Below are positions 1 to 33,798 of a stretch of DNA of 35,119 bases, piece by piece. The position numbers and the translations under genes were made by a program. Source of the stretch: Bilabrum cf. latius (Eukaryota); contig OZ237769.1 of the NCBI GenBank assembly GCA_965178125.1, positions 620,001 through 655,119 of the forward strand, given 5' to 3'. A model generated the notes under the pieces. That model was given only the letters and a program-made list of their open reading frames with translations. It had not been told where the DNA came from and did no database searches. Each line of letters starts with the position of its first letter. Position 1 is the first letter of the stretch.

Positions 1-6
1 GCACGA

Positions 7-1068
7 TCAGCTCCTGAACAGCACCACGGGCACGTTCTGTGTGACAGAGTAGTAGTCCTCGAACTGCACGATCACGTTCACCTCGAACTGCACGCTCAGG
101 GTCTTGGAGGAGAAGGAGGGGCAGGTGAACATCCGGGGGAGCACCATGTACAGAGGCAGCGCCACCCCGCGGGGGACGTCTCCCTCCCCCACCTGCAGGT
201 TCTGGATCTCGGTGGCTTCCCGCTGGGTGCCAGAGGCGGTCGCAACCGATTCCACCCTGACGAGCTGCAGCTCCAGCGACCTGACCCTGGCCTCGGACTT
301 GGCCAGCGTGAGGGTCCCCGTGAAGGGACGGGTGAGCGAGCAGCGGGTCTGGTCCAGCTTGGCGAGCACCTGGAAGTCCGGTATCTCGTGCACGCTGTCC
401 TTCTTTATGTTGGCCAGAGTGGCGGGTGAGATGTCCACGGTCTTGGGGCCCGGCTCGAGGGCGGTTCGGGCGGGGACCTGCACCAGGAACTCGGCGCTGT
501 GGGTGAGGTCCGAGGAGAACGCCCCGCTGGCCTTGAGCACCGCTGCCACGCGGTACACCACGGACAAATAAACTCCGTGGTAGGTTTCGATGAGCCGCCG
601 CCCGCCCACGCCGTCGCACTCGAACTCGAAAGGAATCTCAACTGGCTTGGCAGGCAGCTTGCCCGCGGGCTCCAGCTCGATGGTTTCAGAGAGAAGCACG
701 GAGCTGCCACCTGCCGCCCCGCCACTTGCACCGCCCCCTTCCGGGTCTAACTTTGCGATGACGCCGACTGCCTTGCCTTTCGGCAGAGCGATGATACCAC
801 CATGAGCATCAACTACCAACCCCTTATGCGCCCAGCTGGGCGCGTTGACCAGTACAACGCCCGAGACCGTCTCCTGCAACGCAGTGGGCAGAGAATATCA
901 TGCAATGGACACGCCTCGATCCGGACAAACAACGATACCATCATTCGCTACGCCTCGACAAGTGCAAGTCAGACCACTCCGAAATGTGTACGTGATATTC
1001 ACGGAATTCCACCTTACCCCTGCCTTATAAGTTCTATCTACTCTCTTCAACTTGACTGACAAGCTCAT
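7..1068 (-). CDS. VPS26C: Retriever complex subunit VPS26C / Down syndrome critical region 3 homolog (arrestin-like fold), ~305 aa, 2 exons (1068-1018, 873-7)
   Basis: Exon 1 MSLSVKLKRVDRTYKAG, then a GTAAGG...TTGCAG intron (1017-874), then ETVSGVV...EIPFEF...ETYHGVY...RSLELQLVRVES...REATEIQNLQVGEGDVPRG..LPLYMVLPRMFTCP, typical DSCR3 motifs. Ends in TGA. No in-frame TAG. Confidence 0.93.
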
Positions 1069-1222
1069 CACGACCTGTTTGAGAGGCCTGTGTTGCACGG
1101 GCGGCGTATTTCGGATCCTCGCCGTCGGACTCAAAAGCACACGTTATAATTTCAATGTACTCTGCCAGATTCCGATGTTTGGAGGGAATCTCGCACTTTC
1201 CTCGACAGTAGTAGTCTCAAAC

Positions 1223-2207
1223 ATGGCTGCCGCCGGTGATGAGAGCGCACACAAGTTCCCCGAGGGGTTCGAGGTGTACGATGACGAGAAGTGCATGGCA
1301 GCGGAGGCTCCCTCGCTCGAGGGCCTCAAGGACACTTGGATCGCTGGCGAGTACGTGAGATATCGCGCGCATTTCTGTGGCTTTGTTCTCGTAGTAAAGT
1401 CTGATAAAGTATTGCCTCGTGTGTGGTGCTAGTTATGGTGTTGGTGCTGTGTGGGACTGCACAGGCTCGTTTTGCTGTGCCACGCAGTCGATATCGCGTC
1501 AGCGACCAATCAGCTATTTGGCACTGCACTAGCCGCAGTACGTCTGCAGTTTGTAGTATATTGTCGAGAAGTATTTGCTCGTACTGCGTGAATCGGTCAA
1601 CTGCGCTCAAGCATGCGTTGTTGCTCGAGCAAATGCCTCCGCCAATGAATGCCATGCAGGTTCCCGCGCTTCGATCTGCCCAATCTTTGATTCGCAGTTC
1701 AACCACGGCAACGGCAAGCCCACCATCCTGCTGTTTTGGGAGAAGTTTGCCACTGGTGATTACAAGGTGAACGAGCAGGTGGCCGACTGGGTAGCCACGC
1801 TCGGCGACAAGGTGAACGCCATCGGCGTGTCTGTGGACGCCACCAAGGCGGACGCCGAGAAGTACGTGTCCCGCCTGGGCAAGCACCTGGAGGAGCAGCG
1901 CGTGACCATGAAGATGGTGCCCAACGTTGCATGGGATGAGGACAAGAAGCTGTCCGAGGAATTCAAGAAGGTGTGCCGCCTGGCCGTGATGGGCCCCTCC
2001 AACATGTTCCTCATCTCGGAGAGCGGCCGCATCATGTGGCGCGAGCGCTTCTCGCAGACCTACGAGTTCGAGCAGGGCCTGTTCAAGCGCCAGACGGAGA
2101 ACCTGCTGGCCAACGTGAAGCTGGTCAAGGTGGGCAAGCAGCCCGAGGAGGAGGCCGAGGAGGAGGAGGTGGAGCTCGACTCGGACGACGATGGGGCACT
2201 CTTCTGA
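1223..2207 (+). CDS. Thioredoxin-fold / redoxin (TlpA/AhpC-TSA-like) protein lacking CxxC, ~213 aa, 2 exons (1223-1354, 1698-2207)
   Basis: A GTGAGA...TCGCAG intron (1355-1697) joins APSLEGLKDTWIAGEY to FNHGNGKPTILLFWEKF...AIGVSVD...VAWDEDK...PSNMFLISESGRIMWRE, a redoxin-like pattern. Strong GC3 bias, acidic tail, TGA stop. Confidence 0.7.
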
Positions 2208-2475
2208 GTACGAGATGAAGATGAAGATGGACGCGCCTGGTCTTCGTCTTGCTCGTTGAGCCTGCCAGATGGGCCTCCCTGCCGCAAAGGGAAAGCGATG
2301 CGGTCTAGTCTGTCACTGGCAGGGGCCCAGGGAGACGGCCGAGTTGGATGGAATGCCAGGTGCGTTGAATCGGGGGGTGTGGTGCTGATCTGATTGATTC
2401 CACGATGACACGCTACAATCCCCGAAGCGATGATCAAGCACACGTGCACAGGAAACTCCACTCGCAATCAATCAA

Positions 2476-4120
2476 TCAATGCCTGCCGCCCTGGCCTTCA
2501 TTCCCTCGTTCCCCCTGCTCCGATCTTCGGTCGGCCCCGACTGCCTCGCCCACGCTCCCGAACCCGTCCTCCTTGAGCAGCCCTGCCAGCTCCCTCTTGA
2601 TCCTCCTCACCAGCGCGGGGCCGCAGTACCCCAGTGCAGTGTACACCTGCACCGCAGAGGCCCCCGCCCGGATCTTGGCATAGGCGTCCTGCCCCGACTC
2701 GATCCCGCCCACGCCCACCAGGGGAAGCCGCCCCTACAGCACGCGGCTCGCCTGCCGGAGAATCTCCAGCGAAGGTTCCTTCAGGGGTCTCCCGCTGAGA
2801 CCCCCCTTCTCCCCCCTGTGCGCCCCCTGCAGGGAGCTGGGCCTGGCCACCGTCGTGTTGGACACGATGAGCCCCTGCACGCCCGCGGCCACGGATGCCT
2901 CGCACACGTCAACCACCTCCTCGGGGCTCAGGTCAGGGGCCACTTTCACCAGCACCGGGCAGGGGCGTCTGTCGAGCGCCTGCCAGTCGATCGCGTCCCG
3001 CTCCTTGACCACGGCCTCCAGCAGGCCCTGCATGGTCTCTCGCCTCTGGAGGGCCCTCAGCCCGGGGGTGTTCGGGCTGCTGATATTGACGGTCAAATAG
3101 TCCGCGACGGGGGCCGCCGCCTGCACCCCAGCAATGTAGTCCGGCAGCGCCTCGGCTGTCTTGTTCTTGCCGATGTTGAGCCCCACCGCCCCTACCCTCG
3201 GCAGGCTCCTGGGCTGCTCCGCCCTCCGCCTCAAGAAGGCCTCCACCCGGGGAACAACCACAGAGAGACCCTCCGAGTTGAACCCGAATCGGTTGATTAC
3301 CGCACGGTCCTCCTCGAGTCTGAACATCCTCGGGCGGCTGTTCCCCGGCTGTTCCTTGGGAGTGACGGTCCCCACCTCCACGGCCCCCAGCCCGCACGCC
3401 AGCATGCCCTCCATCGCCTCTCCGTGCTTATCGAACCCGGCAGCCAGGCCCACGGGATTGCTCAGGTGCAGCCCCACCAGCTCAGTGGCCAGCACGGGGT
3501 CATCCTCCTCGTCTTCCCGAGGCCCCAGCCCCGCCGCCGCCAGCCGCAGGCCCCACCCGTGCGCGTCCTCTGCGTCGAGCCCCCTGAGCAGAGGCATGCC
3601 CACGTGTTCGGTGAGCCAGTGGTACTCGTCCGTGCAGCGGACATCTCTCACGCCGAAATGGTACAGCCCCAACAGCACGGCCGATGCTATCTGCGGGGGA
3701 TAAGACGGGGGGCGAGGCTGCTGGACAGCAAACAGTGGATGACTTGCAAGGTCAACCATGGTTACGATGCACCCCGCAGAGCCATTCAGGGGACACACAA
3801 TGAGCATCGCATAGTGCCCATCAAGCACCGGCGATACGGTTTGCACACAACCTCACGGCTGCCTACCGAAATAGCCCACTCCAAGTGAAGAAGCCTTCTG
3901 GGATGCTGCCTTCCCCACCGCCTGCACCTTCGGACCCTGCGCCAGATTTCTGTTCGCTTCCGCGGCCGTTATCCGCCCAAACTAATGGCGTTGAGAAAAT
4001 ACGTCTCCTGGGCACCACAATATGCTGCTATTTGGTCGCTCTAATCTATCGCACGCGGAATAAACTGCCTAGACCCTGTCGCACGGATCCTCTGCAGATG
4101 TTTGTGGCAATTCCCGCCAT
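2476..4120 (-). CDS. DHODH: Dihydroorotate dehydrogenase (quinone), class 2, mitochondrial, ~492 aa, 2 exons (4120-3857, 3690-2476), 4 in-frame TAG
   Basis: Motifs [107 protein letters not shown]. Exon 1 encodes an Arg-rich presequence. GTGAGG...CGCAG intron (3856-3691). TAG at 4046-4048, 4028-4030, 3863-3865 and 2734-2736. TGA stop. Confidence 0.96.
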
Positions 4121-4314
4121 TCTTTCAATTCAACCGCCAGTACCAGCGAGAGTAGTCACTATCAGTGAAAAGGCAAGTAGCAAATATCCGCGTATTGCGC
4201 TGACAACCTCAGTTTGGTGTTTGAAAAAGCTACACCGGAACTGTGAGGCAACGATGCCGAAACCTAGTGTTCCAAGTACTGAAGTGGTGATATGGTTTCA
4301 ATTAAATTGACATC

Positions 4315-5334
4315 ATGAGGAATACTCGTAGACTAGGTGCGGTATCGAAGCTGCTTGACGCCACCAGCCCACGGCGCGGAGTCTTATCTCGTAAGCATTG
4401 GGACTGGATGTGGAAGAGCGGTTTCATGGATTAGCAGCAGGCGATGCCCTCTGATCTCATCAGTACTGTCATTGAGCACTCTAAGCAGCACACGGGTTCC
4501 GGCGCCAGTAGGCTGGCCCTGGTCCCCATGTGCGGCACCTCCGCCGATGCTCTGCTGCTCGCCGAGGGTGGGATGGATGTGGTCGCCATCGAGGTTTCAG
4601 AGGAGGGGTGCGAGCGGGCCCGATCTAGCTGGTCCAAGCAATGGAAAGGAAGTAACTGGCAAGATCTCGGCGTGAGGATGGTCGACAAAGAGGCGCTGGA
4701 CGGTGGGCACGCCACCAGCACGGTGCACGCAGCTAGGCTGCAGGTAGCAGGGGCCGCCGACGATTCCGGTTCTATACTGCTGCTACAGGCAGACGTGTTT
4801 TAGGCTCTACCCCCTGCAGAATATGTCCAGGGGGGTGCTGGCGATATGCTCGCAGCACTGGCAGGCGGGCTTGGTTGCCTCTAGGGGCAAGCAGTGCACG
4901 GCGATGTACACGTGCACCTGCCCATGCCTCGTGCCTGCGCCTCTCTGGTGTGGGATCGAGGGGGTGTGACGAGTGTGGAGCCGTCGAGTCGCGAGGTGTA
5001 CCTGCGCACCTTGTTGGGGTGCCTGCAAGGGATACACCTGGGAGATGAACAAGATGGCAGCAGCTGTCCTGAGTTGGAGGGTGCTGCTGTCGGTGGTGCC
5101 CTGCTGGTGGAGGCGCTGCATCGGCCTGCCACTGGTGGGGGAGAGGACGGTGGGGATGGCTCCGAGTCGGAGGGTATGTCGGCAAGGAACTTGGTTGAGA
5201 TGGTGGAGAGCGCATCCCGATCGGTTGGACTGGATAGGGGTCGCTGGGAGACGGAGGTGCTGCTCGAGGGGGGCATGGAGGGGGTGCCAGGGGTGTCGCG
5301 GGCGCTAGTTAAGTGCTCGGTGAGGGCCGCCTGA
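4315..5334 (+). CDS. Thiopurine S-methyltransferase (TPMT)-like SAM-dependent methyltransferase, ~339 aa, 3 in-frame TAG
   Basis: One continuous frame if TAG is sense (4432, 4801, 4882): HWDWMWKSGF, ALVPMCGTSADALLLAEGGMDVVAIEVSE, QADVF, LVWDRGGVTSVEPSSREVY, matching TPMT-family motifs (VPLCGKS.D..LA..G..VVGVE.S; YDRAAL..LP...R..Y). TGA stop. Confidence 0.82.
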
Positions 5335-5520
5335 TCTCTGAGCGGTCAGTGTTGGTGCGACCCCCATGGACTCCAAACTTACAGACGGTAATTTGCGGGG
5401 CCAGGCAAGTCACAACAGAAACAATGGCCACAAACGCTGCAAAAACAAAAGTTGCTCGTCACACTGGCCACCGGAACGTCAGGTCCTTGGCCAGACGTTG
5501 ACATCTGGACATCATTTCCA

Positions 5521-8025
5521 ATGAGTGATAGGTAAGTGTATATGCCATACTTTATGGTGCGCTTCCGTAGCCTCGTTCCTGCGCCGGCACCCTCGCTATG
5601 CACGCCAAAGTATTCGTGACGGTTGGTTTGCTTGCCTTTGCAGCGAGGACGAATACGAGTATGAGAGCGAAGGCGATGATTTTGGCTCGCCTCAGCAGCC
5701 CTCACCACCAAAATCAAGGGTTGCAGCCACCAGTTAGCCTTCGTCGGCAGCCGGGGCGGCTGATTCCTCAACAGGTTTCGCTGTGCCTGCCTCTGCAAGC
5801 ACAGCGTCTGCCTCAAAAGGCGGTTCTGACGATGCAATTATCGGTTCGAAGCCCGCCCCAACTCCGTCTGTGCTGCCCAGCACCACGGCTAAGGAGAGCA
5901 CAAGCGCGGCGGCGGGCCTGCAACACGAGACAGCCGAGTACCGCATCGTTGAGCCGGGCGAGCTAGCTCAGGAGGTGACGCGCCGGGTAATAGCGCTACG
6001 GGATGTGCTTGAAATTCCCACAGACGTGTGTGAATCGCTACTAGTTGCAACTTCTTGGAGCCGGGAGCGCGTGATGGAGCGGTTTCTTGAGGACGGCGAC
6101 AAGCTGCTCGAGGAGCAAGGCGTGAGAGGCACCTGCTCGACTGCGTACCATCCAGAGTGACGCATTCGCACTGTGCTGTATTTAGTATTCGTGCCTACCT
6201 TTGAACGTTGAACAACTGCCGTTGGTGCCATGCACGCCGACGCTCCTCCCTGATTCCGTCCTTCCCGCACTCGCCACCTGTCCTCTCCTCGCAGCTGGCT
6301 GACGTGGCGAAGGTACCGGATGGCGAGTGCCCGGTGCGGACCCCCATTTCAATTGTGGGTGCAGACGCAGGCGCGGGCGGGTTCTGCGAGATCTGCTTCA
6401 ACGAGCTGCCTGCCTCCGAGGCGCTGGCCCTGCCTTGCAACCACGCATTCTGCGGGCAGTGCTGGCGGGCCTCTGTGGATGCGGCGCTGCAGCTCGGGGG
6501 CGAGCAGGCGCTGCGAGCCTCCTGTCCCAGCCACGGCTGTGTGCAGCGCGTGACGAGGAGGACGGTGTCGAAGGTGTGCAGCCCAAGCGACTCGCAGGAT
6601 GAGGCCGAGGCGGGGCTGTTCGAGGAGGAGGACGAGGAAGAGGAGTGGGACGGGTCTGGGCCCGGGGCGGAGGGAGCGAGAGCGAGGAGGAGGAGGCGGC
6701 GGGGCGGGCTGGCACAGTGGGCCCACCTGACGGAGCACTCCATGGTTGCAACCGCGCGCAACATGGCGTGGTGCCCCGCCCCCGGGTGCGAGCACGCCTT
6801 CGTGGCCAAAGGGGCGGGGCCCTCTGATGTCAAGTGCCCGTGCGGGACTAGGTTTTGCTTCCGGTGCGGGAAGGAGTCCCACTCGCCCGTCACCTGCGAC
6901 TCGCTTGCTGCCTGGCAGGCCAAGTGCGCTGACGAGAGCGAGACGGCCCACTGGATCGTGGCCAATACCAAGAGGTGCCCCAAGTGCTCGGTGCGCATCG
7001 AGAAGAACCAGGGCTGCAACCACATCATATGCAGGTCCTGCAAGCACGAGTTCTGCTGGGTCTGCGAGGGGGACTGGGCCTCGCACGGGCAGAGCACGGG
7101 AGGCTACTACGCATGCAACAAGTACGACCCATCCAAGGCGGGGGGCGGCAAGGACGGGGGCGCGGGGGGCGCTGACAGCGCCAAGGCGGAGCTGGACAGG
7201 TATCTGTTCTACTACCAGCGATTCGACAACCACGACAGGGCCAGGCGGTTCGCGGCCCGCCTGAGGGAGAGGACGTAGAGGAGGGTGCAGGCGCTGGCCG
7301 AGGCAGGGGGAGGCACGTGGAGCGATGCCACCTTCCTGGAGGAGGCCATCGAGGCGCTGCTGGAGTGCAGGCGGGTGCTCAAGTTCACGTATGTGCTGGG
7401 GTACTACATGCCCGGGGGCCACGAGAAGGTCCTGTTCGAGCACCTGCAGGAGCACCTGGAGAGGGCCACGGAGGAGCTGGCCGCGCTCACAGAACAGCCG
7501 GTGGAGAGGGTGGCGGACCAGCGGCAGGAGGTGGTCAACTACACGCGGGTCACGCAGCGGTTTCTGCGGCAACTGCTGGGGGGCATCGAGGAGGGACTCA
7601 CGGGGGGCGGAGCGGGGGCAGGGGCAGGGGCGGCACCTGGGGGGGCGGGAGAAGGGGTCAAACCTGCCGGTGGGGGTAAGAAGGATGCATCATACGACGG
7701 TGCAAACGGGGTACCACGCGGACGTGTTGGGGCACGGGCCTCTGCAGGTGGTGCAGGCGCAGGCCGAGGGGCCGGGGCTGGGGCTGGGCAGAGGTCTGGA
7801 TCGAAGGGGTCGGTGCGCAGTAGCGGGGGCAGGGTGGGGAGTAGTGGGTCCAGGACGGGAGCTGGAGGCAGTAGCGGCAAGAGACCGGGGGCAGGGACAG
7901 GGGCTCGCAGCGGGAGCCGAGGTGCGAGGGGGGGCGCTCCGTCCGGACTGGGTGGGGTGTCTGGGGCGGGGATTGCAGGGAGAGGCCGGAGTGGGGGTTA
8001 GTCCAGGCGTAGGAGAGGTAAGTGA
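5521..8025 (+). CDS. ARIH: Ariadne-family RBR E3 ubiquitin ligase (acidic N-terminus, UBA-like, RING1-IBR-RING2, Ariadne domain), ~739 aa, 3 exons (5521-5531, 5644-6121, 6295-8025), 3 in-frame TAG
   Basis: MSDSEDEYEYE; RING1 CEIC..CNHAFCGQC..CPSHGC; IBR WCPAPGC..CPCGTRFCFRCGKESHSPVTC; RING2 NTKRCPKCSVRIEKNQGCNHIICRSCKHEFCWVC; ELDRYLFYYQRFDNH; LLECRRVLKFTYV. Introns 5532-5643 (GTAAGT..CAG) and 6122-6294 (GTGAGA..CAG). TAG at 5735, 7276 and 7999. TGA at 8023-8025. Confidence 0.93.
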
Positions 8026-8550
8026 AGATAGTTAGGACTTCCACCAATACGCTGTAAGCAGTATAATTTGAACCTGGATAGATACTACGCGCCAGATGCC
8101 CTAGCTATCTTTTGTTTTGGAAAACAACACGTTACTGAATGGGAAATACGGATCAGCTGGAACACCCGCCACAAGACCGTAGTAGAGAAAAGAAGTTTAC
8201 TGCCTAACGCACACAGAAATTGTTAATATGAACCCTATTGGATCAGCACGCGAATGGGCAAAGGTGAGACTGTGGGCTTATTCGCCTGCCAAGGCCACAA
8301 GATTTGTCAGCTGAACCACAATCGCCTCACCATCACCTCGAGAATCGCTGCGTAGCGGTTCAAGAGCGTTCCGCATATATTTTTAAGTGATATATGTCTT
8401 CTATCGCTATGAATGTTGCGGAAGAGCGCATACAAGGCGGATGATGGGGTCGACGTGGTGTCCATCATGGTCCAGTCGGATTGCTCCTTTTCGATTTTGT
8501 CACGCCCGATTCGTGCACACGTTGTCCCATTGTACTATTAAATATTGCAG

Positions 8551-10167: not shown

Positions 10168-11226
10168 TCACTGCCCCTTGCGCTCCTCCTCCGTCATCTT
10201 CTGAAAGACGCACAGCTCCGAGCACCCCCACTGGAACTTGCGGGCGTGCTCCCGAATGAGGAAGGGCTCGTCCCCGCTGTGCACGAGCGAGAAGCCCAGC
10301 TCCTTCATGCGGGCCTTGAGACCCTCGCTGGAGCCACCGTCTCCGCGGGCGGCGGCAGCGTCGTCACTGCGGCCCCCCAGCCACTTGTCCCTGGGAGTGT
10401 ACTGCTCCAGCCACGAGTAGGGCGAGATGAAGACCACCACGCCCTCGGGGGCCACCAGGCTCGGGAGGGCCCGCAGGAGGGCGTCCGGCTCGGGCAGGCG
10501 GCAGAGCAGGTTCGCGCCGTGCACCACGTGGAATGGGCCTCCTAGCTTGTCTGCGTCCAGGCTGCAGGCGTCGCCCTGCTCGAAGCGGATGCGGTCGGGC
10601 TTGGCGGCCTCAGGGCGGGTGGCCTTGCCAGACCGCCAGACCTCGGCTTCCTGCAGATACCGGAATGGGAGCTCCCCGGCGGTCTGGAGCTTCTTCGCGG
10701 CATTGATGAATGCGTGCGAAAAGTCAATGCCAACCACCTCGTCGAAAGCCTCGCTGAGCTTGAACGAGGTTGCGCCCACGGCGCACCCGAGATCCAAGGC
10801 ACGCGTCTTGGCTGGCTTGCGCCCAAAGTGGGCCAGACGGCTCTCGGACCAATCAATGCACACCTATGCAGTGCGGACAGGGAAGTTCAGCGCGTGCTTC
10901 GGTCCCATGCTGTACGGTAGGAACTCCTTATCGGAACCGTAGTGAAAGAAGAGGTACTCATTCACCGCACCATCAGTCTCGTACACGTTTCCGTCATGAT
11001 CCGAAGACGTGGTAGACAGCTACTACTTCTTAGTTGCCTTCTCCGCGTCAGCTTTGGAGCCGCAGCATGATGCCTTGGAAGAAGAGGGTGAAGATCCCTT
11101 CTATGCCCGCAGCAGCAGCCAGCTCACACCGGCGCCCAACACAGCTCCCGCACAGCTCGCTGCAACCACATGGGTTGTGTTGATATTGCCCAGAGACAAT
11201 TTGTTGGATGATGATGCAGCAGCCAT
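10168..11226 (-). CDS. SAM-dependent methyltransferase resembling the OvoA C-terminal (mercaptohistidine N-methyltransferase) domain, with an N-terminal hydrophobic anchor, ~352 aa, 4 in-frame TAG
   Basis: Continuous frame from ATG 11226: NVYETDGAVNEYLFFHYG...NFPVRTA*VC...RALDLGCAVGATSFKLS..FDEVVGIDFSHAFI..A...FEQGDAC.L...ANLLCRLP.P...SPYSWLEQYTPRDKWLGG...PFLIREHARKFQ. TAG at 11101, 11023, 11020 and 10864. TGA stop. Confidence 0.88.
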
Positions 11227-11438: not shown

Positions 11439-14400
11439 TCAGCTCCCGGCGCCCCATGGGGAGGCCATGGGCCCAGTCCCAGCCCCAGTCCCAGCCCCAG
11501 TCGCCCCAGCCGCCACAGGCCCATCCGAGAACTTGGACCCCGCCACCTCCCTGTGCCTCGCCCCGTCCGCTCGCTCCCTCGCCCGCCGAAGCCGAAACAA
11601 ACCCTCGTCCACGTGCTTTAGTCGATCAGACGCCAGCATCTCCATCACCTCCCCCTGTGCGGCAGGAGGCACAGCCCCAGGGGGCAGCAGCTGCCCCAGC
11701 GCGGCCTGCACCCACTCCCGCGCGACCCCTCCCCCCAGCTGCCTCAGCTTCCTCACCATCGCGGAGACACTGCCCGTCCTGCCGTCGATCACACGAGAAG
11801 TCATCGTCACCAGGGCAGCCTCCAGACCAGCACGCACCAGCGCAGCCCCGGCCCTGCGGATCTCGGACGACGCCCTGCCCATCGCTGCCCCCTGCACCGC
11901 ACCTGAGCTCGCACCTGTGCCTGCGCTAGCGCCAGTTTGCTGCTGCCTGCCTGCCGCTAAACATGCATCGCCCAGCATCGATACGGCCCTGCACGCCTGC
12001 ATCGCCACGTCCAGATTCACCGCGGGCAGCGCCCGAACCGCGAGTTCCAGGGCGCGGGGCAGCCCCGGCCAGGAGGATACCACAGGCCCGCACAGCGAGG
12101 CCGCGGTGCCCAGCAGCTGCAGGCCGCGGTACACGAAATCCGCTTGTTCCCTGGCCCGCTGCTGCACGGCCGCTCCATCGACGGGTCCCGTGCCCAGGAC
12201 CCTGTCCACCACGGCACCCACGGCCTCCAGCGCCATCATCTCGCAGGCCCCTCGAGTCGGAGGGGGCACGTGCTCGGGCCTGGCCTTGTGGCAGCAAGTG
12301 GCCAGCAGGCTCTGCACCAACTCCAGCAGTACCTGGTCCTGACCATGACCAAAGATGAACGGGAGGGCCGGCCGCAGGTGCTGCACCAGCCCCAGGGAAC
12401 AAGGCCGCTGCACTTGCACGATGGTCCTTGCGGCTTCCAGCCAGGCACCCACCGCGTCCACCTGCCCTATCCTCCTCCTCAGCGCCTGCATGAGCAGGGG
12501 CCACAGCTGGTCCAGCACCCTCTTCACCACCCGCATGCTGCCTGCATCGGGAGCGGGCCACTGGGAGTCCCGGCCCGTCCATCCACCCATCGCATACGGC
12601 CTGCCGCGGCGGGCAGGCAGCTGCAGCCCCTCGAGCTCCACGAGAGGAGCTGCACCGGACCGCTGGGCTTCGGCGCGGGCCAGTGCACTCGTCACAGCAG
12701 CGGCTTCTTCCCTGGCCCTGGCTGCATCCGCGCGCACCGCCGGCACCTCGAGAGCGAGGGGGGAGTAGAAGCAGGCATCGAGGTCCTGCAGCGCCAACAG
12801 GACGGGCTAAGGGTCGGAGAGTGGCCCCTGCGACTTGGCGTCTGCCGCCAGGCGGTCTACCGCGGGCTTGAGGACGGCCTTGAGCCGGCCCTCTGCCTGG
12901 GACTCGTCGGTGGACGCGAGGGCGGCGGGGGCCAGGCGGTGGAAGCAGTTGTCTCGGATGGTGGGACGGGCCGACAGGGCAAGAGCCACCATCTGGCCCT
13001 GCAGGTCCGGGGGCAGCGCATGGGAGGCGTCCCGCAGGAAATAGCCGAGGGCGTTGCCAGCCTGCACGCTGAACGAGGGGTGCGGGCGCTGCACGGCCAT
13101 GCGCAGCAGCCCCGCGCACTTGGGCAGCACCGAGGGGACTCGCACCATGTGTTCCCTGTACACGGTCACCAGCCTGCACATGGTGGCCACGCACTCGGGC
13201 TCCCGCGGGTACTGGTCCAGACCCTGCAGCACGCTCCTGACCAGAGGTGCCATGGAGAAAGGCACCTCTCTGTGGATCCCTCGGAGCGCGTACAGGGCCG
13301 CCTCGACCCCCCGCCAGGTGCCAACCAGTCGCGCGGGCCCTGCGGCAGAGGGCTTCCCTCGCCTGCCGCTGCCCTTGGTCTCCCTGTACGCCCTCATCTG
13401 CCCCTGCAGCTGCTGCAGCAGCATGGTGGCCACCTATCTGGTCCCGCACAGCCTGCATGCGTCCCCCAGCAGCCCGCACACCGCATACCTCCACTCCAGC
13501 AAAAAGGCGTCCTGCCTGTCCTTTGGCATGTCCTCGTACCCCTCAGGCACTTCGATCGCGCCCAGCACCGCCGCGGCCAGCTCCGTGTAGGCCCGCTGCA
13601 CCAGCCCATGCACCGCCTCCGTGGTCCGCCTCACCACGATGGGCCTGTCCTCGTCCCCACTGCTGCTGCCTCCCTCCTCCTTGCCCTCCCTGAGCTCCCC
13701 TTCCTCCTCCCCCTTGTCCTGATCGTCCCCGTGCTCCTCCTCCGAGTCATCCCCGTCCCCGCCACCACCGGCGATCGACCTCGGCCCCAGCACCACCCTA
13801 GAGACCTCGGCCCACGCAGACAGCGTCAGCTCGGCCACCTCGTGGTCCCTGCTGCCAGTGCACCTCACCAGGGCCTGCAGCAGACCCCCGTACAGCGCAC
13901 CGTGCGGCCGCAGCAACACCCTCGCGCTGCAGTTCGCCGCCCAGCTGACCACCTCCACCATGCGTGCCGCGCCCACATCGTCCCCCGCCTCCTGGCACGC
14001 GACCCCGACCCCCGCGCACTCGCTCGCCTCCCGACACACCAGCCGGAGGAGCCCCTCGGGCCCCCGGGTGTCCCCCGGGTCTGGCACAGCACCTGCACCT
14101 GCACCTACACCTGCACTGGCCCCGGCCCCGGCCCCGCCTGCTCCCCGAGCCTGCCCCACACTGCTGCTGCTCTTAGTCGTCATCCCCTAGGCTCGGGGTA
14201 CCGTCTGCCGCAGGTGCACGATTGCCTCGTCCGAGACCCGCTGGATGGCCGCGTGAGCTGCCTTGAAGGCCGACTGCAGCACCCCGTCCATGGCCGAGAG
14301 ACGGACCAGTCCGGGGGGAGGGGCCTGCCCGCCCGGGGCGGTGGCCCTTGCCCTCAGGAGCTGGAATGCCCTCTGCACCAGTCGAGAGGGAGGCGCGATT

Positions 14401-15164
14401 TCCCTGGCCCCCATGGCCTTGTAGTCCAGCCACTCGGCCATGCAGTCCATCGCGGCGCACACCGCCCCCGGCCTGCCCTTAGACCCCGCCATGACTGCGT
14501 CCAGCAGGGCTGCCACCTTGGGCCGGGCGGCGATGAGCTCATCCTGTAGCGCGGCATACCTGCCCCTGCCGATGGCCTTCTTGCGGTGGGCTAGCTCCCG
14601 GGCGCGGGGCATCTCCGAGAGGACCGAGAGCAGTACGGGCTGGCCGGCGGGGGGCAGCCCGGAGGCAGGACCACCCGACCCACTGGCTGCATTGCACTTT
14701 GTGGTAATCGCAGAGCGAATCGAGTCCACCACGCCGGTCCAGTCTGTCCATTGACACGCCAGCGACGCCAGAGCGACAGCTGCCGGTCGCTGCACGGACT
14801 AGAGTCCCGTGCCACCACGCGCGGTAGTGCACCTCAGCAGCACCTCCAGCAGCATGTCTCTCAGATTTGGCCAGAATTTCTTGTTCAGTCTTGCCAAGTC
14901 CTCGATTACTTTGTCCTCCAGGGTTTTGGCCGCCCATTGCAGTTCCGGCTCGTTGGGTGCATGATTCATATCGAGCTTCAGCAGATTGATTGCGGACATC
15001 CAACCGGCATCGCACCGCCTGACGTCTGCAATGTATTCCGTGGCTCGCTCCCTTTCGTCTTTCGGGGCAAGGCCGGCTGCCACAGCATGAAGGGCACCGC
15101 GAACTTTGGCCTCGTTGAACGGTGGGCCCAGAAATGTCAGCCCCTCTGGTAGCAATGAGGCCAT
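11439..15164 (-). CDS. TNPO3: Importin-beta family karyopherin, transportin-3/Mtr10/importin-13-like, ~1,241 aa, apparently intronless, 4 in-frame TAG
   Basis: Five same-frame ORF fragments separated only by TAG (14799, 14187, 13434, 12807) and ending in TGA (11439). IBN_N-like ERATEYIADVRRCDAGW..A..LL...ELQWAAKTLEDKVIEDL; AVALASLACQWTDW; LSVLSEMP; WRGVEAALYALRGI. Subfamily is inferred. Confidence 0.78.
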
Positions 15165-15352
15165 GACCACCACCTATGCACACGCTATTTGAACTTAAGC
15201 GTAACTATGCGCAGCCTGTAGTTTGCTGGGTTTCTAATGCATGCAGCATGGTGGTGTTGATGGCCGCACTGCACTCATCACTGCGCCACTGGCAGCAAGG
15301 ACACGGTGGGATCCGTGTGCCTCGCAGAGGTAGTAGGGCAGATAAAACCGGC

Positions 15353-16606
15353 ATGAGTAGTCTGCGAGCTATCATTGAGCAGCGCCGGGCCAAAGCCTCC
15401 GCGAGTTCAGCGCCAGCTGCCGTCTCAAAGCGATTCGTGCGGCGTGGAGAGCTGCGAGCCAAAGGGTCGACAGCCGGCGAGCGCCGGGGCCGCAGCGAGC
15501 AAGATTCGGAGAACCCCAGTTCAGAAGCAGAATCGCAGCCGCGTAAGAGGTCTCGAACGGAACCGAGCACCAATCAAGCATCGGCTGGTGCCAAGTCTGC
15601 AGCACCGGACATTCCAGGAGCATCGCAAGACAAAGATAGTTTCGACCGAGCTTGCAGCGTGCTCAGATCGCAAGGCATGCCGATTCGACTTTTTGGAGAG
15701 AGCGAATAGGACGTAGCACGCAGGGCCAGCCAGTACTCCCGCGGAGACGACGTGCTTGGCACCCGCTTAGGCCTCGAGCACCACCTCGGCGTGAGGCGAC
15801 GCACGGGGATGGAGGGCTTGCAGGAATACGGAGCACCTTCCATTCATGAGGCGGGGAAATCTGCTCCGCCCTCGCTCCCTGCTGGGAGTGCCTCGGCGGG
15901 TGCACCGGCGCCCTCCTCCTCCTCCTTCTCTTCGTCCTCGTCAATGCCGGCGAGCGCGACCCCGAGCCACTCCCTGTCCTCGTCCGCAGACCAGTTCTCG
16001 TTGGCCGGTGCCCAGTTCGTGCCCCCCCGGGACAGGGCAGAGGCTCTCTCCCGCATGGCCCGAGTGGCGGGCTACTTCCAGGGGCTCTTGCGGGGTTGGG
16101 AGAACGAGTGCGAGGCCAGGGAACAGGGGGTTGCTGGGGCACGCGAGGGCAAGGGGGGCACTGCGGCTGACCGCGCCGTGGGTACGAGCCAGAGGAAGAG
16201 GATCCAAGCTGAGCTACGCCGGTGCAGCGAGTACCTGCTTCCGCTGTGGGGGGCGTGCAGGGAGGGCACTCTGCCTCTGGACGTGCTGGGGCACCTGGAG
16301 GGCATGGCGGGGGCGCTGGCCAAGGGGAGTGTGACGAGGGCGCTGCAGCACCACGTGCAGTGGAGCGTGGGAGAGCAGGACTGGATCGTGGGTGTGACGA
16401 CGACGGGGATCCACGCCCGCGCGGGGCGCAACAAGCTGTTCGAGCAGGATGTGGCGCACGTGATGAACGACGAGAGGCAGAGGAAGATGGCCGTGGGGAT
16501 CAGGGCACTCATTGCCTTCGCGCAGAGGAGCGGAGAGGGCGTGTCCGCACGAAAAAGTGCCGAGGTGGGCTCCTCGGCCGGGAATGTGAAGAAGGGCTCT
16601 AGCTGA
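15353..16606 (+). CDS. PRPF18: Pre-mRNA splicing factor Prp18, ~417 aa, 1 in-frame TAG
   Basis: N-terminal KRFVRRGEL; splicing-factor motif LRSQGMPIRLFGESE*D (TAG at 15707); C-terminal SVGEQDWIVGVTTTGIHARAGRNKLF..DVAHVMNDERQRK matching the Prp18 motif IGNAPWPIGVTMVGIHAR..REKI...VAHVLNDETQRK. TGA stop. Confidence 0.92.
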
Positions 16607-16845: not shown

Positions 16846-18249
16846 ATGGCAAGTGAAGCGGCCTAGAGACGGGCTGTACTCGCAAGACAAGCGGTTGCAC
16901 TGGGCTCAACGCAAGTGGCCGCAGAGTCGGAGCTTGCCGCTGCCGCAGAGGCAGATAGCTACAGAGTGCGAGTGGATGAAACAAAGAAAAGAGCTGTGAT
17001 GGAGGCACCAACCTACGACCAGTTTCATCAAAGGGTTCTGGCCACTGACCTCGTTCCATTGGCAGGCAAGCAGATTCAAGGCGAGCTGCTTGGAGGGCAG
17101 CGACCTGCTGGCTCTCAGGAAACGTCAGCTGGAGATACACAATTATCTGGTATTTCACCGGCTGACGGGGCATTTCTCTTGGATCTAACGCTGCCTAAAT
17201 CAGAGAGAGGCGGCGCATCAGGCAGTGGACTCAGGTCTTGGACGTAGCTTGCCGCAGCTTCTGCAGCGAACGATGCGGATCGTTTGCTTTCTGGCACATG
17301 GGCAGATGGAATGCCCCGACTGGGTAGGCGTCGTGGCGTGGCAGCTTCCCGCGATGCCCGCCGCCCGCCCGCTCCCGTGTACACGCCGTCCACTCACGAG
17401 CGGCTGTCCCTGTCGGCCATCGCGGCAGAGGCGCTGCGACCCTGCGGTGGTGTCTAGGGCGCTGTGGCAGCAGGTGGGGATAGTGGGGCGGCTGGGGAGG
17501 GCGTCGTGGCGGCCGCATCCAGTGTGACCAGTGCATCAGCAGCAGCTAGATCTACTCAGGGCCCTGGCACCAGTGCTGGCAAGAGCAAGAGTAAGGGGAA
17601 AGCCAAGGGGGGGAAGAAAGGGGCCTCTTCCCTCCCACGCACTCTGATGCAGCTGGAGAGGGACTGGAGAAGGGAGTCCCGGGCAGCAACAGGGCAAGGG
17701 CAAGGCTATGGGCTTGGTGCTCGGGATGGCAGAGTGACGCTCATGCGGGGGCTGGGGCCCAGGCGGCTGGCCCGCCTGACTGGCCTGGAGGTGGATGCCG
17801 GTCTGCTGGGTGACGTGCTGCAGCTGGCGGAGCGGTATGGTCCATCCCAGGGAACAGGGGAGCTTCATGCGGCTGGAGGGGCTGGCGAGATGCAGAAGAC
17901 GGACTCACGGGCTGAGGCCCAGGCCCAGACCCGCTGGGACAGGGAGGCCTTGGGGTGGGTGGAGGCAGTGATGGTGGACAGAACACCGAGGGAACAATCC
18001 AGGTTGCCGTGGGCTAAGGGATACGTGGCTCCGGGGGGAGACGGGGCGGGGGTAGCTGACCCCGGCGCTATGATAGGCACGGCTCGACAGCTGAGGATAT
18101 CCGGTCCTGCCCGGCTGGCGTGGACGCTGGTGCGAGCCGAGGCACGGGAGGCTTGCAAGGCGTTCTTGGGGCGGTGCGTGGGGTACGGAGCTGGCGCAGA
18201 AGATGTGAGTGCGAGGGCCAGGCAATTGCAGGAGGCTCTGCTTGGTTGA
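16846..18249 (+). CDS. CCDC103: CCDC103/DNAAF19-like axonemal dynein attachment factor, ~467 aa, 3 in-frame TAG
   Basis: N-terminal ESELAAAAEADSYRVRVDETKKRAVMEAPTYDQFHQRVLATDLVPL (dynein attachment factor N-domain) and RPAP3_C-like LPRTLMQLERDWRR...LMRGLGPRRLARL..LEVDAGLLGDVL. TAG at 16864, 17245 and 17455. TGA stop. Confidence 0.85.
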
Positions 18250-19493
18250 GCGCTGGCATCCAGATATATGTTCCATGTTGGCGGCCATATGTCGCACGTG
18301 TGAAGCTAAGACTACCAGAAATGTGCTATCTGTATCCTAGACGTCTATTTAGTTTTTCAACTGCGATCTCATATTTAGATATCCGATCTCATGTTTGAAA
18401 GTACACCTTACCCCTCAGAGTTGCTCGTGATGATCCGGATAGCGCAAACTAGTCTCCCAATCAATCAGACATGGCAAGTCCTTGACAAAGCTTTGCAGGA
18501 TGGCGCTGCTCTAGGCCTGTTTATCCAGGTCCGAGCTGAGCCACTGCACCACTCAGCCGAGGAGGAGGGGGAACTGGGAGGGTGGGAAAACGAGTTAACC
18601 CAAACTCCGTCCCTCTCCTGAACACAGAGAGAGCTGCAACACATAAATCCGGTGCGCGTCGATCACGGTTGCGACCGGCCCTATACCGTAACAAACGGGG
18701 AGACATGGCAACCTGCGCTCCCATTATCGCATCAAACCCGAACCCCATCCGGCGTAAGGTATAACAAATTATTCTGGTAGACTATTATTCTGGTATTCCA
18801 CAAAATATCAGATCCCCCCCTCACTTTTGGTCCCCGGAAAGGGGAGGGTCCTGAACACTGTGAACAGTCCGGGGGTCCGTAGACCAGGCCTGCCGACTCG
18901 TGCAGCGACCAAGATTCGCTCCGGCCAAATATCGTCCATTCCTACCGGGGATTTGGTAATTTGCAGCCAGTAGCGGTATAGGTGAGGCCAACTAGTGCCC
19001 CAAGTGCTGGTTCTGGCCCGATGTCTGCCTCTAGTTTTCGAGAGGCACCGAACCGCCCCTTCACATTGTACAAGCACATACTTTCGTAAGCTAAGCTACA
19101 GTTCAAAAATGGAAATTGTAGCCAGGTTTCGTCCCCTTGCTAAGGTAGCTACATGTACCCGTACCCATACTGACCAATACAGCTGAGTCCTGGCAGAGGG
19201 GACCCGCATGTCGTGCTTCCTACCTTTTTCATGCATTTTCTGCTCCTCTATCGCAGATAAATAGTCGACAATAGGTAGCTTTTTTTGTCAAACTCCATGA
19301 TTTTGCTGGTAAGTCAATCTGTAGCCCAACAATATTTTCCACAAACGACAAAACGTGTTTTCCACCCACTGCCAGTGGCAGCGTGGATGGCCCTCCGAGG
19401 AGTCCCTTCCCCGTCGCCAGAGCGGATTCAAAGAGCAGGTGCACTGGGGCTGGGATTAGGGGTGCGGGGCAAGTATGGTATCATAGCCGGGTC

Positions 19494-22400
19494 ATGCACT
19501 CCTATTTCTCCCGACTTTTATCAGCCAGTCTCCCCTCACAGCAGCCAGTCCTGCTCCTGCTGCAGTTCCTCTGGAGCATAGCCCAGCCAGCCCCGAATGA
19601 GGCCCGCCAGGTCATGCAGACTGACGCACTTGATCCAGATGGGATTAACCACCTTAACATGGGGCAACAGGGTAGCCATCGCGACCGAAGGCTCAACCTG
19701 GCAGATGATGGGTACGTAACTTTGAGCTCCGGGGCGAACGGGATGCCAGCCCTGCCCGCGAGCACAGCGTTCGGAACGTGCATCGCAAACCTGGGAAACC
19801 TCGACAACGATACAAACGGGCTTCCGGAGGTTTTTGTGGGAGCCAGAAAAGGTGCCAGTGCCAGCAACATCGGGACGAGCTTCATTGTGTCGCTCACAGC
19901 GACGGGCACGGTGGCTTGGACCAAAGAGGTCGGGTAGGCCAACCTGGCGGATGGGTCAGGTGAGCGGTTCGGGGAGGACTGCATCTCTCTAGGACGGATG
20001 ACGGTCGATTCAAATCGCACCACTGTGGCAATTACTACGCTGGAAAAATTCAGGTTATGGCTGATCAACCTGAGACCGAACGGTGAGGTGGCTAGCTACT
20101 AGGTCATCTCGACGACGACGGGACTTGAGCCTGGCGTGACCTTCAACCAGTAGATTCGAAGTGTAGCCGCCCCCGGTGATGTTGATGGAAACGGAGTGCA
20201 GGATCTGCTGGTCAACGAGTGGGACTTGGGAGGTTCCAACTACAGGACGTCTCTCCTTTTCCTAACCGTAAGGGGCACTGTTCGGGAGGTCTTCGAGCTC
20301 TCGATACCGAACGCTGATGACGGTAGATTTCGGACCTTGAGAGTAGCCCCCATGGACCCATGGACGTCTAGCAGCATCACCATAGCCACTTCAGATTACC
20401 GCGAGGGGTTCCCAAGGGGAGTTCGGATCTTCGAGATGGAAAGGAACTCAACCACGCCTGCCTTCACTCTGGTAGGATCCGTACTTACGACGTCGGACAA
20501 CTTCTGCTGCTCGACGCTGCTCTCGAGATCATTTGCATTTTTAGCAATATGGATACCAGAGTAAGACGTATATTGACAGCAGGGCCTGCTGTGGATGTAT
20601 AGCGGTTGCTCAATCACGTGATCCATTGCTACTGCTTTGACCCTGCCACGCTTCCCGCGCCTCCCCCCGCAGCCAAGACGCCGACTCCAACCCCGAGCTG
20701 GTGATCACAGACTTTAGATACAACAATGACAGAGGGAGGGCATACTTGGTGTACCTGAATGCCACCTACGGGATAAAGGGCATGGTGCCTTTTGGTCCGG
20801 GGCAGGATTACATGCAAGTATCATCCAGCCCTGCCAAGTATTTCGGCACGGCGGTCGACTTTATCGGCAATCTTGGTAATGGTGGCAAGCCAACACTCAT
20901 GGTAGGCAGCAATTATGGCTTAGCAGGGGCTTCTGGCCGAAAAGGCAATGCATGGGTCCAGACGATGCCCGAGGGGGTCGCCGTGGTCACCTCATCCCAC
21001 CGCATCGCAAGCAACTAGGGCGGCATTGGCTCGGTCTCGGGCAGCAAGTTCGGTACTGCCGTCTGTGCCATCGGAGACCTGAATCGGGACGGGATCAATG
21101 ACATGGCCATCGGGCAGGCCTCTGGTGCCTTGCCCACCAGAGGCAATGTGCGGATCGCCTTCATGGACGCTGACGGGACGGTGGGCTCTGTGCAGACCAT
21201 CTCCAGCACCAACGGCATGGGAAATAGTATAACACGTCAATTTGGAATCTACATGGCATTCCTCAATAGACAGACAGGGTCATCCTACGATACCCTAATA
21301 GTTTCAGATGACTTTGACAGCAACGATGGCTACGAGCGTGGGGCGCTGTGGATCCTGGAGCTAACGACGACAGGCTCTGTGCAGTCCAAGCAGCGCATCG
21401 GGGACAACGAAGGTCTCAATGGACAAGGAAGACTTGGTCTGTAGAGCCGTGACCATTTTGGCCGCTCAGTGGCCGTGGTGGGCGACATCGATTCCGATGG
21501 GCGAGTAGAGATCGCAGTTGGGGCCGAGCACTTAGTATCTGCCGGTTCGGGCACCTTGTTCATCATGTCACTCTTCCAGAATCACACGGTGGCCTAGTGG
21601 AGCAAAGTATCTGCCACAGAGGGGGGATACTAGCCATCACCCTTCGATACCAGGATGTACCAGAGCCTTGCAGCAATCGCAGACTTGGACCAAGACGGAG
21701 TGCCAGACGTAGCTACCGGCACCAACTTCGTATCTGACTGCGGAAGCAGATGCGGGGCCGTCATTGTCTTTTTCCTTCATTCGAACGGCACCGTCAAGGA
21801 CCAGCAGCGGATCTCACATAACACAGGCGGTCTTGGGTCTGTCCTTGCGGCGGGCGACAACTTCGGCCGCGGGCTCTACTCGCCCGGTGACTGGAACGGC
21901 GATGAGATTCCAGACCTGCTGGTGGGCAGCTACAAAGATCCTGACGGGGGCAGCGCGCGAGGTGCATTCTACCTTATGTACATGAATCGCGATGGCACGG
22001 TCAAGTCGTCGGTCAAGTTCTCAGACACCAAAGGGCAGCTGGATGTAGACATCAAAGCTGGAGACAACTTTGGCTACTCGTTCATGCTGCTGTCATCGAG
22101 CATAGGCAACAACCATAGGATTGCTGTGGGTCCATCTACTGACTCTGGCTACGTGGAGGTGATTGATATCTTCTCAGCCGCATCCCTGGCATCTCCATCT
22201 CCGTCGCCTACCCCATCTGTGACTCCCTCGACCTCCAGCAGTCCCACGCCAAGCATTACGTCTAGTGTCACCAGCAGTCCCAGCAGCTCGCCCACGCCGA
22301 GCATTACGTCTAGTGTCACACCGAGCCCTTCCAACAGCCCAACGCCCTCAAATAGCCCCACGCCCAGTGTAACGCCCAGTGTAACGCCGACCGCGACCCC

Positions 22401-28400: not shown

Positions 28401-29190
28401 GGTGGATCTGGACGGAGGGCTATAGGCTATCGCAGCCAACAGCACCGGTGCGCCACTTGAGGACCACGGGAACCTGACCGATGTTGCCTTGGGTCTGCCT
28501 CCAGGCTGTCCTGTCGACCATCCCAGTCGCCGGCTGTACCATGATCTAGACGTGTGCTGCCACGACCCCGCCGCTCTCGTAGTCATGTACGGGATCGGCA
28601 TCCCGGCCACCATGCTGTATGCCTTCGGCATCCCTATCTTCGCCGGTGTTTTGCTGTACCGTGCCAGGAACAAGCTGGACGACACCCGGGTGGTGGCCAC
28701 GCTGGGCTTCCTGCAAGAGGGATACAGGCGGGACCACTTTTACTGGGAGGTGGCCATCATGGCCCGGAAGCTCATCGTCGTCTGCATCGCCGTTTTTCTC
28801 GAACCGTGGGGGGCGGCTGTTCAGACATATGTGGCGATGACGAACGTATTTGTATTCGCAACGCTGCATGCATTTAACCAGCCGTTCAAAGACCGGGATT
28901 TAAATCTTCTGGAACTCCTCGCCCTAATGAGTGCCTTTCTGACGTTCGTGTGCGGGCTGTTCTTGTTCGACCCAGTGACTGGGGACGGTGTGCGGGTGCT
29001 GGCCACGATGGTGGTAGTGCTGCTGAACACGACCGTGATCGCTGTGGCTATAGGGGTGCTGCTCCTGCCATTTGCTGCACCCTACTTCCTTTCGTGGTGT
29101 GGTTGCGGGCGGCTCGATAGGGAGGGCTCGATCGCCAAGGCGAGGGTTGGTGGGACGGAACAGAGGCGCCTGCCGATCCGAGAAGATTGA
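19494..29190 (+). CDS. Giant cell-surface protein: signal-like N-terminus, FG-GAP (integrin-alpha-like) repeats, Ser/Thr/Pro stalk, many IPT/TIG domains, FN3-like and Cys-rich segments, multi-pass TM C-terminus; ~3,194 aa, 2 exons (19494-20560, 20673-29190), 25 in-frame TAG
   Basis: FG-GAP motifs (FGTAVCAIGDLNRDGINDMAIG, FGRSVAVVGDIDSDGRVEIAVGA, FGRGLYSPGDWNGDEIPDLLVG); IPT motifs (P.V..I.P......GG..VTITG.NFG); CAEGYSGTMCQRCVPGY; TM region with LGFLQEGYRRDHFYWE and PF....LNLLE. One phase-2 intron, GTAAGA...CGCAG (20561-20672). All other breaks are TAG; terminal TGA. The start codon is inferred. Confidence 0.88.
22189..22443 (+). repeat. Coding low-complexity mucin-like (SPTPS/TPSVT) repeat within the giant surface protein
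   Basis: ASPSPSPTPSVTPSTSSSPTPSITSSVTSSPSSSPTPSITSSVTPSPSNSPTPSNSPTPSVTPSVTPTATPSITPTTTPSTTPGP, with DNA-level duplication of agcattacgtctagtgtcac. Confidence 0.9.
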
Positions 29191-30570: not shown

Positions 30571-30961
30571 AGGGTTAGGGTTAGGGTTAGGGTTAGGGTT
30601 AGGGTTAGGGTTAGGGTTAGGGTTAGGGTTAGGGTTAGGGTTAGGGTTAGGGTTAGGGTTAGGGTTAGGGTTAGGGTTAGGGTTAGGGTTAGGGTTAGGG
30701 TTAGGGTTAGGGTTAGGGTTAGGGTTAGGGTTAGGGTTAGGGTTAGGGTTAGGGTTAGGGTTAGGGTTAGGGTTAGGGTTAGGGTTAGGGTTAGGGTTAG
30801 GGTTAGGGTTAGGGTTAGGGTTAGGGTTAGGGTTAGGGTTAGGGTTAGGGTTAGGGTTAGGGTTAGGGTTAGGGTTAGGGTTAGGGTTAGGGTTAGGGTT
30901 AGGGTTAGGGTTAGGGTTAGGGTTAGGGTTAGGGTTAGGGTTAGGGTTAGGGTTAGGGTTA
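30571..30961 (+). repeat. Telomeric (TTAGGG)n array 1, ~65 units
   Basis: Perfect TTAGGG tandem array, G-rich strand on +. Confidence 0.99.
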
Positions 30962-32329: not shown

Positions 32330-32389
32330 ATCTAATATAAAGTCAGGGACAGGGTCGGGGAAAAAATATTTTCATCTTCAATATTTGTC

Positions 32390-33738: not shown

Positions 33739-33798
33739 ATCTAATATAAAGTCAGGGACAGGGTCGGGGAAAAAATATTTTCATCTTCAATATTTGTC

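Follow-up and report, generated by a model that had tools for sequence, protein, structure and literature searches.

In-frame UAG codons, most likely read as glutamine, in a dihydroorotate dehydrogenase gene and its neighbours from a probable stramenopile

Changes of the nuclear genetic code are rare among eukaryotes, and those that split UAG from UAA are rarer still. Codes that read both UAA and UAG (UAR) as glutamine ("table 6") are held by many ciliates, hexamitid diplomonads, some ulvophyte green algae, oxymonads, and Amoeboaphelidium. Here, we describe a stretch of 35,119 nucleotides (contig OZ237769.1, positions 620,001 to 655,119; hereafter the window, with position 1 as its first letter) that encodes on its minus strand a class 2 dihydroorotate dehydrogenase (DHODH) with a TAG in frame at 2734-2736. 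The window resembles table 6 codes in that a stop codon appears to be read as glutamine, UGA is the terminator, and gene callers using the standard code fragment the genes. We are confident, short of certainty, that the host is a eukaryote, probably a stramenopile, whose nuclear code treats UAG as a sense codon, most likely for glutamine, and UGA as a terminator, while UAA does not encode glutamine.

The closest described systems are those in which UAG has been separated from UAA. In PMC5304391, Iotanema spirale is described as reading UAG as glutamine and keeping UAA as a stop, with UAG making up about 8 % of its glutamine codons, the rhizarian exLh as reading UAG as leucine, and the code-variant lineages given are fungi, Amoeboaphelidium, oxymonads, Blastocrithidia, ulvophytes, and ciliates. 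PMC11687900 lists two phyllopharyngean lineages and Protocruzia as UAG-to-Gln cases and Scotinosphaera as a UAG-to-Ser case. Iotanema spirale (Fornicata), Protocruzia tuzeti, and the two phyllopharyngean ciliate lineages (NCBI table 15) share with the window a UAG that means glutamine uncoupled from UAA, a UGA terminator, and UAG as a minority glutamine codon. The host of the window differs from these lineages in having its best named matches among stramenopiles, a GC-rich genome, and an aerobic way of life with a mitochondrial-type DHODH. Unlike in Iotanema, for which UAA is reported as a stop, UAA is found in the window neither as a sense codon nor as a stop, all 10 gene ends being UGA. Rhizarian exLh (Leu) and Scotinosphaera (Ser) also give UAG and UAA separate meanings, whereas the evidence from the window points to glutamine. 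A code that reassigns only UAG to glutamine is already known as a kind, and it is the lineage that appears to be new for it. In a 2024 overview of stramenopiles, code reassignment appears only in a reference on mitochondria (PMC11412368), and full-text searches, in a collection without most subscription journals, turned up no nuclear code change for this group. The sequencing runs used here date from 2025, and their producers may already have noticed the variant.

The DHODH coding sequence runs on the minus strand from 4120 to 3857 and, after an intron, from 3690 to 2476, which amounts to 492 codons with 4 in-frame TAGs. Beyond the TAG at 2734-2736, the frame stays open for 85 codons up to a TGA at 2476-2478. 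The parts of the gene are as follows:

4121-4205, minus strand: 5' untranslated part, 85 nt and free of ATG, as transcript contig X5 record 11 extends to 4205
3857-4120, minus strand: coding part of exon 1, 88 codons from the ATG at 4118-4120, covering a basic N-terminal extension and the first part of a hydrophobic anchor
4046-4048, minus strand: in-frame TAG, codon 25 (X5 record 11 and X7 record 25, 0 other letters)
4028-4030, minus strand: in-frame TAG, codon 31 (X5 record 11 and X7 record 25, 0 other letters)
3863-3865, minus strand: in-frame TAG, codon 86, opposite CAG (Gln) in the related contig L001 (transcript contigs and codon alignment)
3691-3856, minus strand: intron of 166 nt, GT..AG on the minus strand (joint 3690/3857, CT..AC on the plus strand)
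2476-3690, minus strand: exon 2 with the catalytic barrel, stop codon TGA at 2476-2478 included (Pfam DHO_dh; acceptor at 3690 from the X5 and X7 joints)
2734-2736, minus strand: in-frame TAG, codon 407, just upstream of the GVGG motif (unchanged in X5 record 11 and X6 record 18)

The domain evidence identifies a full-length class 2 enzyme. The match of the exon-2 product (404 residues) to Pfam family DHO_dh (PF01180) has an E of 8.8e-83, extends over residues 67-371 and over profile positions 2-290 of 291, and spans the TAG, which is residue 319 of that product. The best structure matches are solved chains of mitochondrial quinone DHODH (E 3.8e-111; query 15-389 against chain 26-394). In the phmmer alignment to 2fpt_A and 6cjf_A, which are chains of human DHODH, the TAG at 2734-2736 lies opposite the q of "yaltqgrvpiigvgg", so that the placement of this TAG on a glutamine of the human enzyme, proposed in a first-pass annotation made from the sequence, is borne out. 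Invariant columns include N202, S204, S205, P206, N207, T208, K249, N278, T279, T280, G326, G328, and G329, among which the SSPNT segment presumably carries the serine base of the enzyme. The motifs that had been expected to be lost with a true stop are indeed downstream of the TAG and conserved: GVGG (G326, G328, and G329) is invariant, and Q348 and Y350 of the Q-x-Y motif are nearly so, with Q348 being Q in 118 of 118 homologues. The full-length TIM-barrel domain and the conserved FMN- and orotate-binding motifs, including those past the TAG, place the product in class 2. With human and animal mitochondrial class 2 DHODH (2fpt_A, 1d3g_A, and others), it aligns over the full length and has all FMN- and substrate-binding motifs in common, and it differs from them by a longer N-terminal extension before the anchor (approximately 85 residues) and by the 4 UAG codons.

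The N-terminal part fits this picture by its composition. The first 50 residues of the Gln-recoded protein contain 9 R+K against 1 D+E, the best 19-residue hydrophobic window comprises residues 87-105 (mean Kyte-Doolittle 1.28) and crosses the exon junction, and the region that aligns with the solved chains (from chain residue 26) comes after this hydrophobic stretch. A mitochondrial presequence followed by a membrane anchor is therefore plausible as judged from composition only. With UAG as a sense codon, the gene is intact, and its product is a class 2 enzyme of 492 residues in which a basic N-terminal extension and a hydrophobic anchor precede a complete FMN-binding barrel.

Transcript evidence for the gene comes from the comparison of window positions 1-8100 with sequencing runs, of which X1 is DNA-like and may be the window's own source, giving no independent support, while X5, X6, and X7 belong to two further studies. 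The RNA status of the latter runs was guessed, and their contigs show loose poly(A) ends and GT..AG joints, so that these contigs derive from processed RNA. X5 record 11 (1,612 nt, depth 51) equals window positions 2428-3690 joined to 3857-4205 with 0 other letters; this spliced DHODH transcript retains all 4 TAGs, and the ATG at 4118-4120 is the first ATG on it. The joint that skips the 166-nt intron is found in spliced contigs of two runs from two studies (depth 51 in X5 and depth 5 in X7), X6 record 18 (2518-2863) carries the TAG at 2734-2736 unchanged, and X7 record 25 spans the 3 exon-1 TAGs, whereas 2734-2736 is not covered by the listed X7 pieces. The first-pass extension of the frame through 3 further TAGs of exon 1 (in frame at 4046, 4028, and 3863) to the ATG at 4120 is thus supported by the spliced transcript. 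Transcripts without the TAG had been named as evidence against the first-pass reading, and the spliced contigs retain the TAGs. The same holds for neighbouring genes: X5 record 12 covers 4284-5233, including TAGs of a methyltransferase gene resembling thiopurine methyltransferase (TPMT), with 0 other letters, and the TAGs of an Ariadne-type gene are likewise unchanged in transcript contigs. As the TAGs are present in the mRNA, neither assembly error nor RNA editing explains them.

In-frame TAGs are a property of the window rather than of one gene. Across 7,898 coding codons in 10 genes recognized by Pfam or homology, the in-frame stops comprise 50 TAG, 0 TAA, and 0 TGA; 8 of the 10 genes contain TAG in frame, Pfam domains run across these TAGs, and TGA terminates all 10 genes. 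Leaving TAG open lengthens the longest stop-free frame of the window from 863 to 2,850 codons. Read as glutamine, UAG would be a minority codon (50 of about 350 glutamine codons) in coding sequence with a GC content at third codon positions (GC3) of 0.73.

Two relatives of the host allow a comparison of sites. L001, a contig of 5,807 nt from a JGI metagenome, is syntenic with the window over the Ariadne gene, the TPMT-like gene, DHODH, and an AhpC-like gene at a DNA identity of 68-82 %. Its in-frame stops are all TAG and stand at positions other than those of the window, it has no in-frame TAA, and TGA ends 3 of 3 readable genes. A closer relative, 92-96 % identical, is known from protein fragments that correspond to DHODH (P0001) and to a 1,241-codon gene of the window (P0361, P0364, P0365, and P0366). 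Because gene calling used a standard-type code, the stored proteins of these relatives are fragments: in public protein collections, P0002 and P0121 end exactly at TAGs of L001, and P0361, P0364, and P0365 are broken at sites that are TAG or CAG in the window, the breaks falling on window TAG codon 122 and window CAG codons 724 and 868. Over the 4 genes that the window shares with L001, exchanges between CAG and TAG occur either way. Glutamine, unchanged at 19 of 46 positions, is the least conserved of 9 residue types checked in this comparison, and the other 8 (E, K, D, G, S, N, R, and L) are conserved at 0.58-0.78.

These comparisons indicate which amino acid UAG may encode. The flagged DHODH site itself contributes nothing, since its column varies among the 118 homologues (G 45, A 26, E 13, D 8, and Q 7); the earlier argument therefore stands in its alignment to glutamine and is weak in taking this glutamine as evidence for the meaning of UAG, and we rejected the site for this purpose. 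The methyltransferase TAG columns were rejected as well because they are variable or gapped. More telling are the relatives. Of the window TAGs in the 1,241-codon gene, the fragments P0361 and P0364 cover codons 326, 577, and 786, and all 3 of these sites are Q in them. L001 DHODH carries a TAG in "AV-TAG-LY" of the "VQxY" motif, where the window has CAG and all 118 of 118 homologues have Q. TAG stands on one side of 12 aligned window/L001 codon pairs; its partner is CAG in 3 of them, and the remaining partners are GGT, GGG, AGA, GAT, GAG, CCT, AGC, AAC, and GCC. Ordinary glutamine codons keep Q in 19 of 48 window/L001 pairs, from which the share for TAG is no different (Fisher p 0.51). Pooled over all comparisons, Q is found in 6 of 16 against a background of 4.6 % (p about 5e-5).

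Several observations weigh against this reading. At the flagged site, the 96 % identical P0001 has D and L001 (85 %) has G, neither being Q, and elsewhere window TAGs stand opposite G, G, R, D, E, and P of L001 while TAGs of L001 stand opposite S, N, and A of the window. In two TAG columns of the Ariadne gene, E outnumbers Q among distant homologues by 79 to 14 and by 60 to 8. The close relative is represented by protein fragments, in which the codons at the breaks are not visible, and the support for glutamine comes from comparison with homologues and relatives. Scans of the window and of L001 for tRNA genes found none. Finally, only 10 gene ends were available, with which occasional termination at TAG or TAA would be compatible.

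UAG could accordingly be a sense codon for another amino acid (Glu, Leu, or Ser as in some ciliates, rhizarian exLh, and Scotinosphaera) or have a context-dependent meaning as sense or stop. Besides the excess of E over Q in the two Ariadne columns, one TAG/GAG and one AGC/TAG pair with L001 would fit such a code, and UAG-to-Leu and UAG-to-Ser are on record (PMC5304391 and PMC11687900). However, glutamate is conserved at 91 of 123 aligned window/L001 positions and is opposite TAG in just 1 of 12 pairs, the 3 covered TAG sites of the 92-96 % identical relative are all Q, and one TAG falls in a column that is Q throughout. Ambiguous codes of the Condylostoma, karyorelict, or Blastocrithidia type use the same codon as both sense and terminator, which is not so in the window, where TAG stands at 0 of 10 gene ends, a small sample. 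We therefore consider another amino acid or a context-dependent meaning improbable. UAG is most likely read as glutamine, as the first-pass annotation had proposed. What decides for this interpretation is the retention of the TAGs in transcripts, the recurrence of TAG in most of the window's genes, the Q at window TAG sites of the close relative, and the L001 TAG in a column that is otherwise invariably Q, and we hold the assignment to glutamine with good but not complete confidence.

The second question is whether UAA has been reassigned together with UAG. CAA and CAG occur at 55:249 in the window, so that about 11 in-frame TAA would be expected beside the 50 TAG if UAA were used in the same way, and the 0 seen (Poisson 1.6e-5) mean that UAA is not a glutamine codon at the rate expected from CAA in the one window sampled. 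Because TAA is not seen in frame despite this expectation, the code of the window is of the UAG-only type rather than of the common type that reassigns both codons, and it differs in this from table 6 codes, which use UAA as glutamine. A table 6 code in which UAA is too rare to appear in a GC-rich sample would agree with the high GC3, with the fact that TAA terminates 0 of 10 genes, and with the usual joint reassignment of UAA and UAG (PMC5304391 and PMC11687900). Yet TAA is missing from the window where about 11 would be expected in frame, L001 is also without in-frame TAA, and we consider such a code improbable. The gene ends are less informative on UAA as a stop: if a TAA share of 20 % is assumed, 10 consecutive TGA ends have a probability of 0.11.

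The region beyond the flagged TAG has also been maintained by selection. Between the window and L001, the DHODH sequence before the TAG has a pN of 0.139 and a pS of 0.767, and the 70 conserved codons after it have a pN of 0.123 and a pS of 0.670; we give pN and pS rather than a dN/dS ratio since synonymous sites are saturated (pS 0.67-0.77). Purifying selection past the TAG is the same as before it, and the low pN with saturated pS on both sides means that the downstream part has been kept as coding sequence. A neutral dN/dS had been named beforehand as a sign of decay, and pN lies far below pS on either side. That this DHODH copy is a pseudogene or truncated gene in which TAG is a true premature stop is a notion to which we give practically no credence: the standard code does halt the frame at 2734-2736 and leaves the ATG at 4120 with only 24 codons, and the site is occupied by a sense codon (D) in the relative that is 96 % identical, but the TAGs are retained in a spliced, well-covered transcript, the codons after the TAG evolve like those upstream, every invariant motif after it is intact, and 8 of 10 window genes would be likewise "broken", with TAG as the interrupting codon in every case and neither TAA nor TGA in any.

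By analogy with other lineages that read UAG or UAR as glutamine, the nuclear code of the host, in which UAG would be sense (most likely Gln) and UGA the terminator at every gene end, may rely on two changes. A tRNA-Gln, either one carrying the anticodon CUA or a near-cognate one, would decode UAG, and the release factor eRF1 would no longer recognise UAG. An Rfam search gave 0 matches.

The source lineage is probably a stramenopile, as suggested by its best named matches. Among the matches of the Ariadne protein that bear organism names, 23 of 24 are oomycetes, ochrophytes, or a labyrinthulid (38-56 % identity), all of them stramenopiles, and 1 is a dinoflagellate. The named matches for DHODH and the methyltransferase are taxonomically mixed.

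The other genes of the window with in-frame TAGs are the following:

4315-5334, plus strand: TPMT-like methyltransferase gene with 3 in-frame TAGs (4432, 4801, and 4882), ending in TGA (Pfam; X5 record 12)
5642-8025, plus strand: Ariadne-type RBR ubiquitin ligase gene with an intron at 6122-6294 and 3 TAGs (5735, 7276, and 7999), ending in TGA
10168-11226, minus strand: 4-mercaptohistidine-N1-methyltransferase-like gene with 4 in-frame TAGs, ending in TGA (homology)
11439-15164, minus strand: 1,241-codon gene with 4 TAGs (codons 122, 326, 577, and 786), ending in TGA
15167-16606, plus strand: Prp18 splicing-factor gene with 1 in-frame TAG (15707-15709), ending in TGA (Pfam)
16846-18249, plus strand: dynein-attachment-factor-like gene with 3 in-frame TAGs, ending in TGA (Pfam)
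19095-29190, plus strand: gene for a giant FG-GAP / IPT-TIG membrane protein, containing 28 in-frame TAGs, of which 25 follow the first Met, and ending in TGA (Pfam)

A Vps26 segment is also among the coding segments of the window. The 4-mercaptohistidine N1-methyltransferase-like gene, whose name (ovothiol pathway) was taken from JGI and NCBI sources, encodes an N-terminal hydrophobic extension and has two adjacent TAGs (codons 68-69). No Pfam family matched the 1,241-codon gene, which looks HEAT/importin-like on impression only and has just 38 matches at E <= 0.001 among 1.84 billion representatives, several of which are fragments from close relatives. The giant gene of approximately 3,300 codons encodes, along with FG-GAP repeats and several IPT/TIG domains, a linker rich in Ser/Thr/Pro and a C-terminal region that crosses the membrane more than once; its putative intron at 20473-20671, which is placed by GT..AG and matching phase only, contains the sole nearby TAA. 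Next to DHODH, an AhpC/TSA-like gene on the plus strand (1239-2430; intron 1355-1697, poly(A) site at around 2430) is free of TAG, is represented by transcript contigs much deeper than those of any other gene (X5, depth 1,334; X7, depth 315), and meets the 3' end of DHODH with its own at 2428-2430. Toward the end of the window, there are 4 arrays of TTAGGG (30571-30961, 31586-32329, 33007-33738, and 34416-34697), the last 3 of which alternate with two identical blocks of four 155-bp satellite repeats (32389-33007 and 33798-34416). AT-richer, non-telomeric sequence (34698-35119) follows the last array up to the window end. Either the arrays thus lie at an interstitial or subtelomeric site and not at a chromosome terminus, or this part of the assembly is unreliable.

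For practical work on this organism, standard-code gene calling breaks most of its genes, and annotation, orthology assignment, and metabolic reconstruction need a table with TAG as Gln, failing which core enzymes, DHODH for one, would be counted as absent. More broadly, we tentatively suggest, at somewhat less than even odds, that this is the first nuclear stop-codon reassignment in a stramenopile-affiliated lineage and an independent origin of a UAG-only to Gln code, with UGA as perhaps the sole working terminator, and that it is shared by at least 3 related lineages (the window, the 92-96 % identical relative, and an environmental relative at 71-85 %) in which CAG and TAG interconvert freely. 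A further unrelated GC-rich lineage would be an independent case that could be used to test the co-evolution of eRF1 and tRNA-Gln when one UAR codon is captured. As DNA and two RNA studies exist, the host group is apparently culturable as well as GC-rich, and, if this proposal is true, such a group could show how UAG and UAA become separated.

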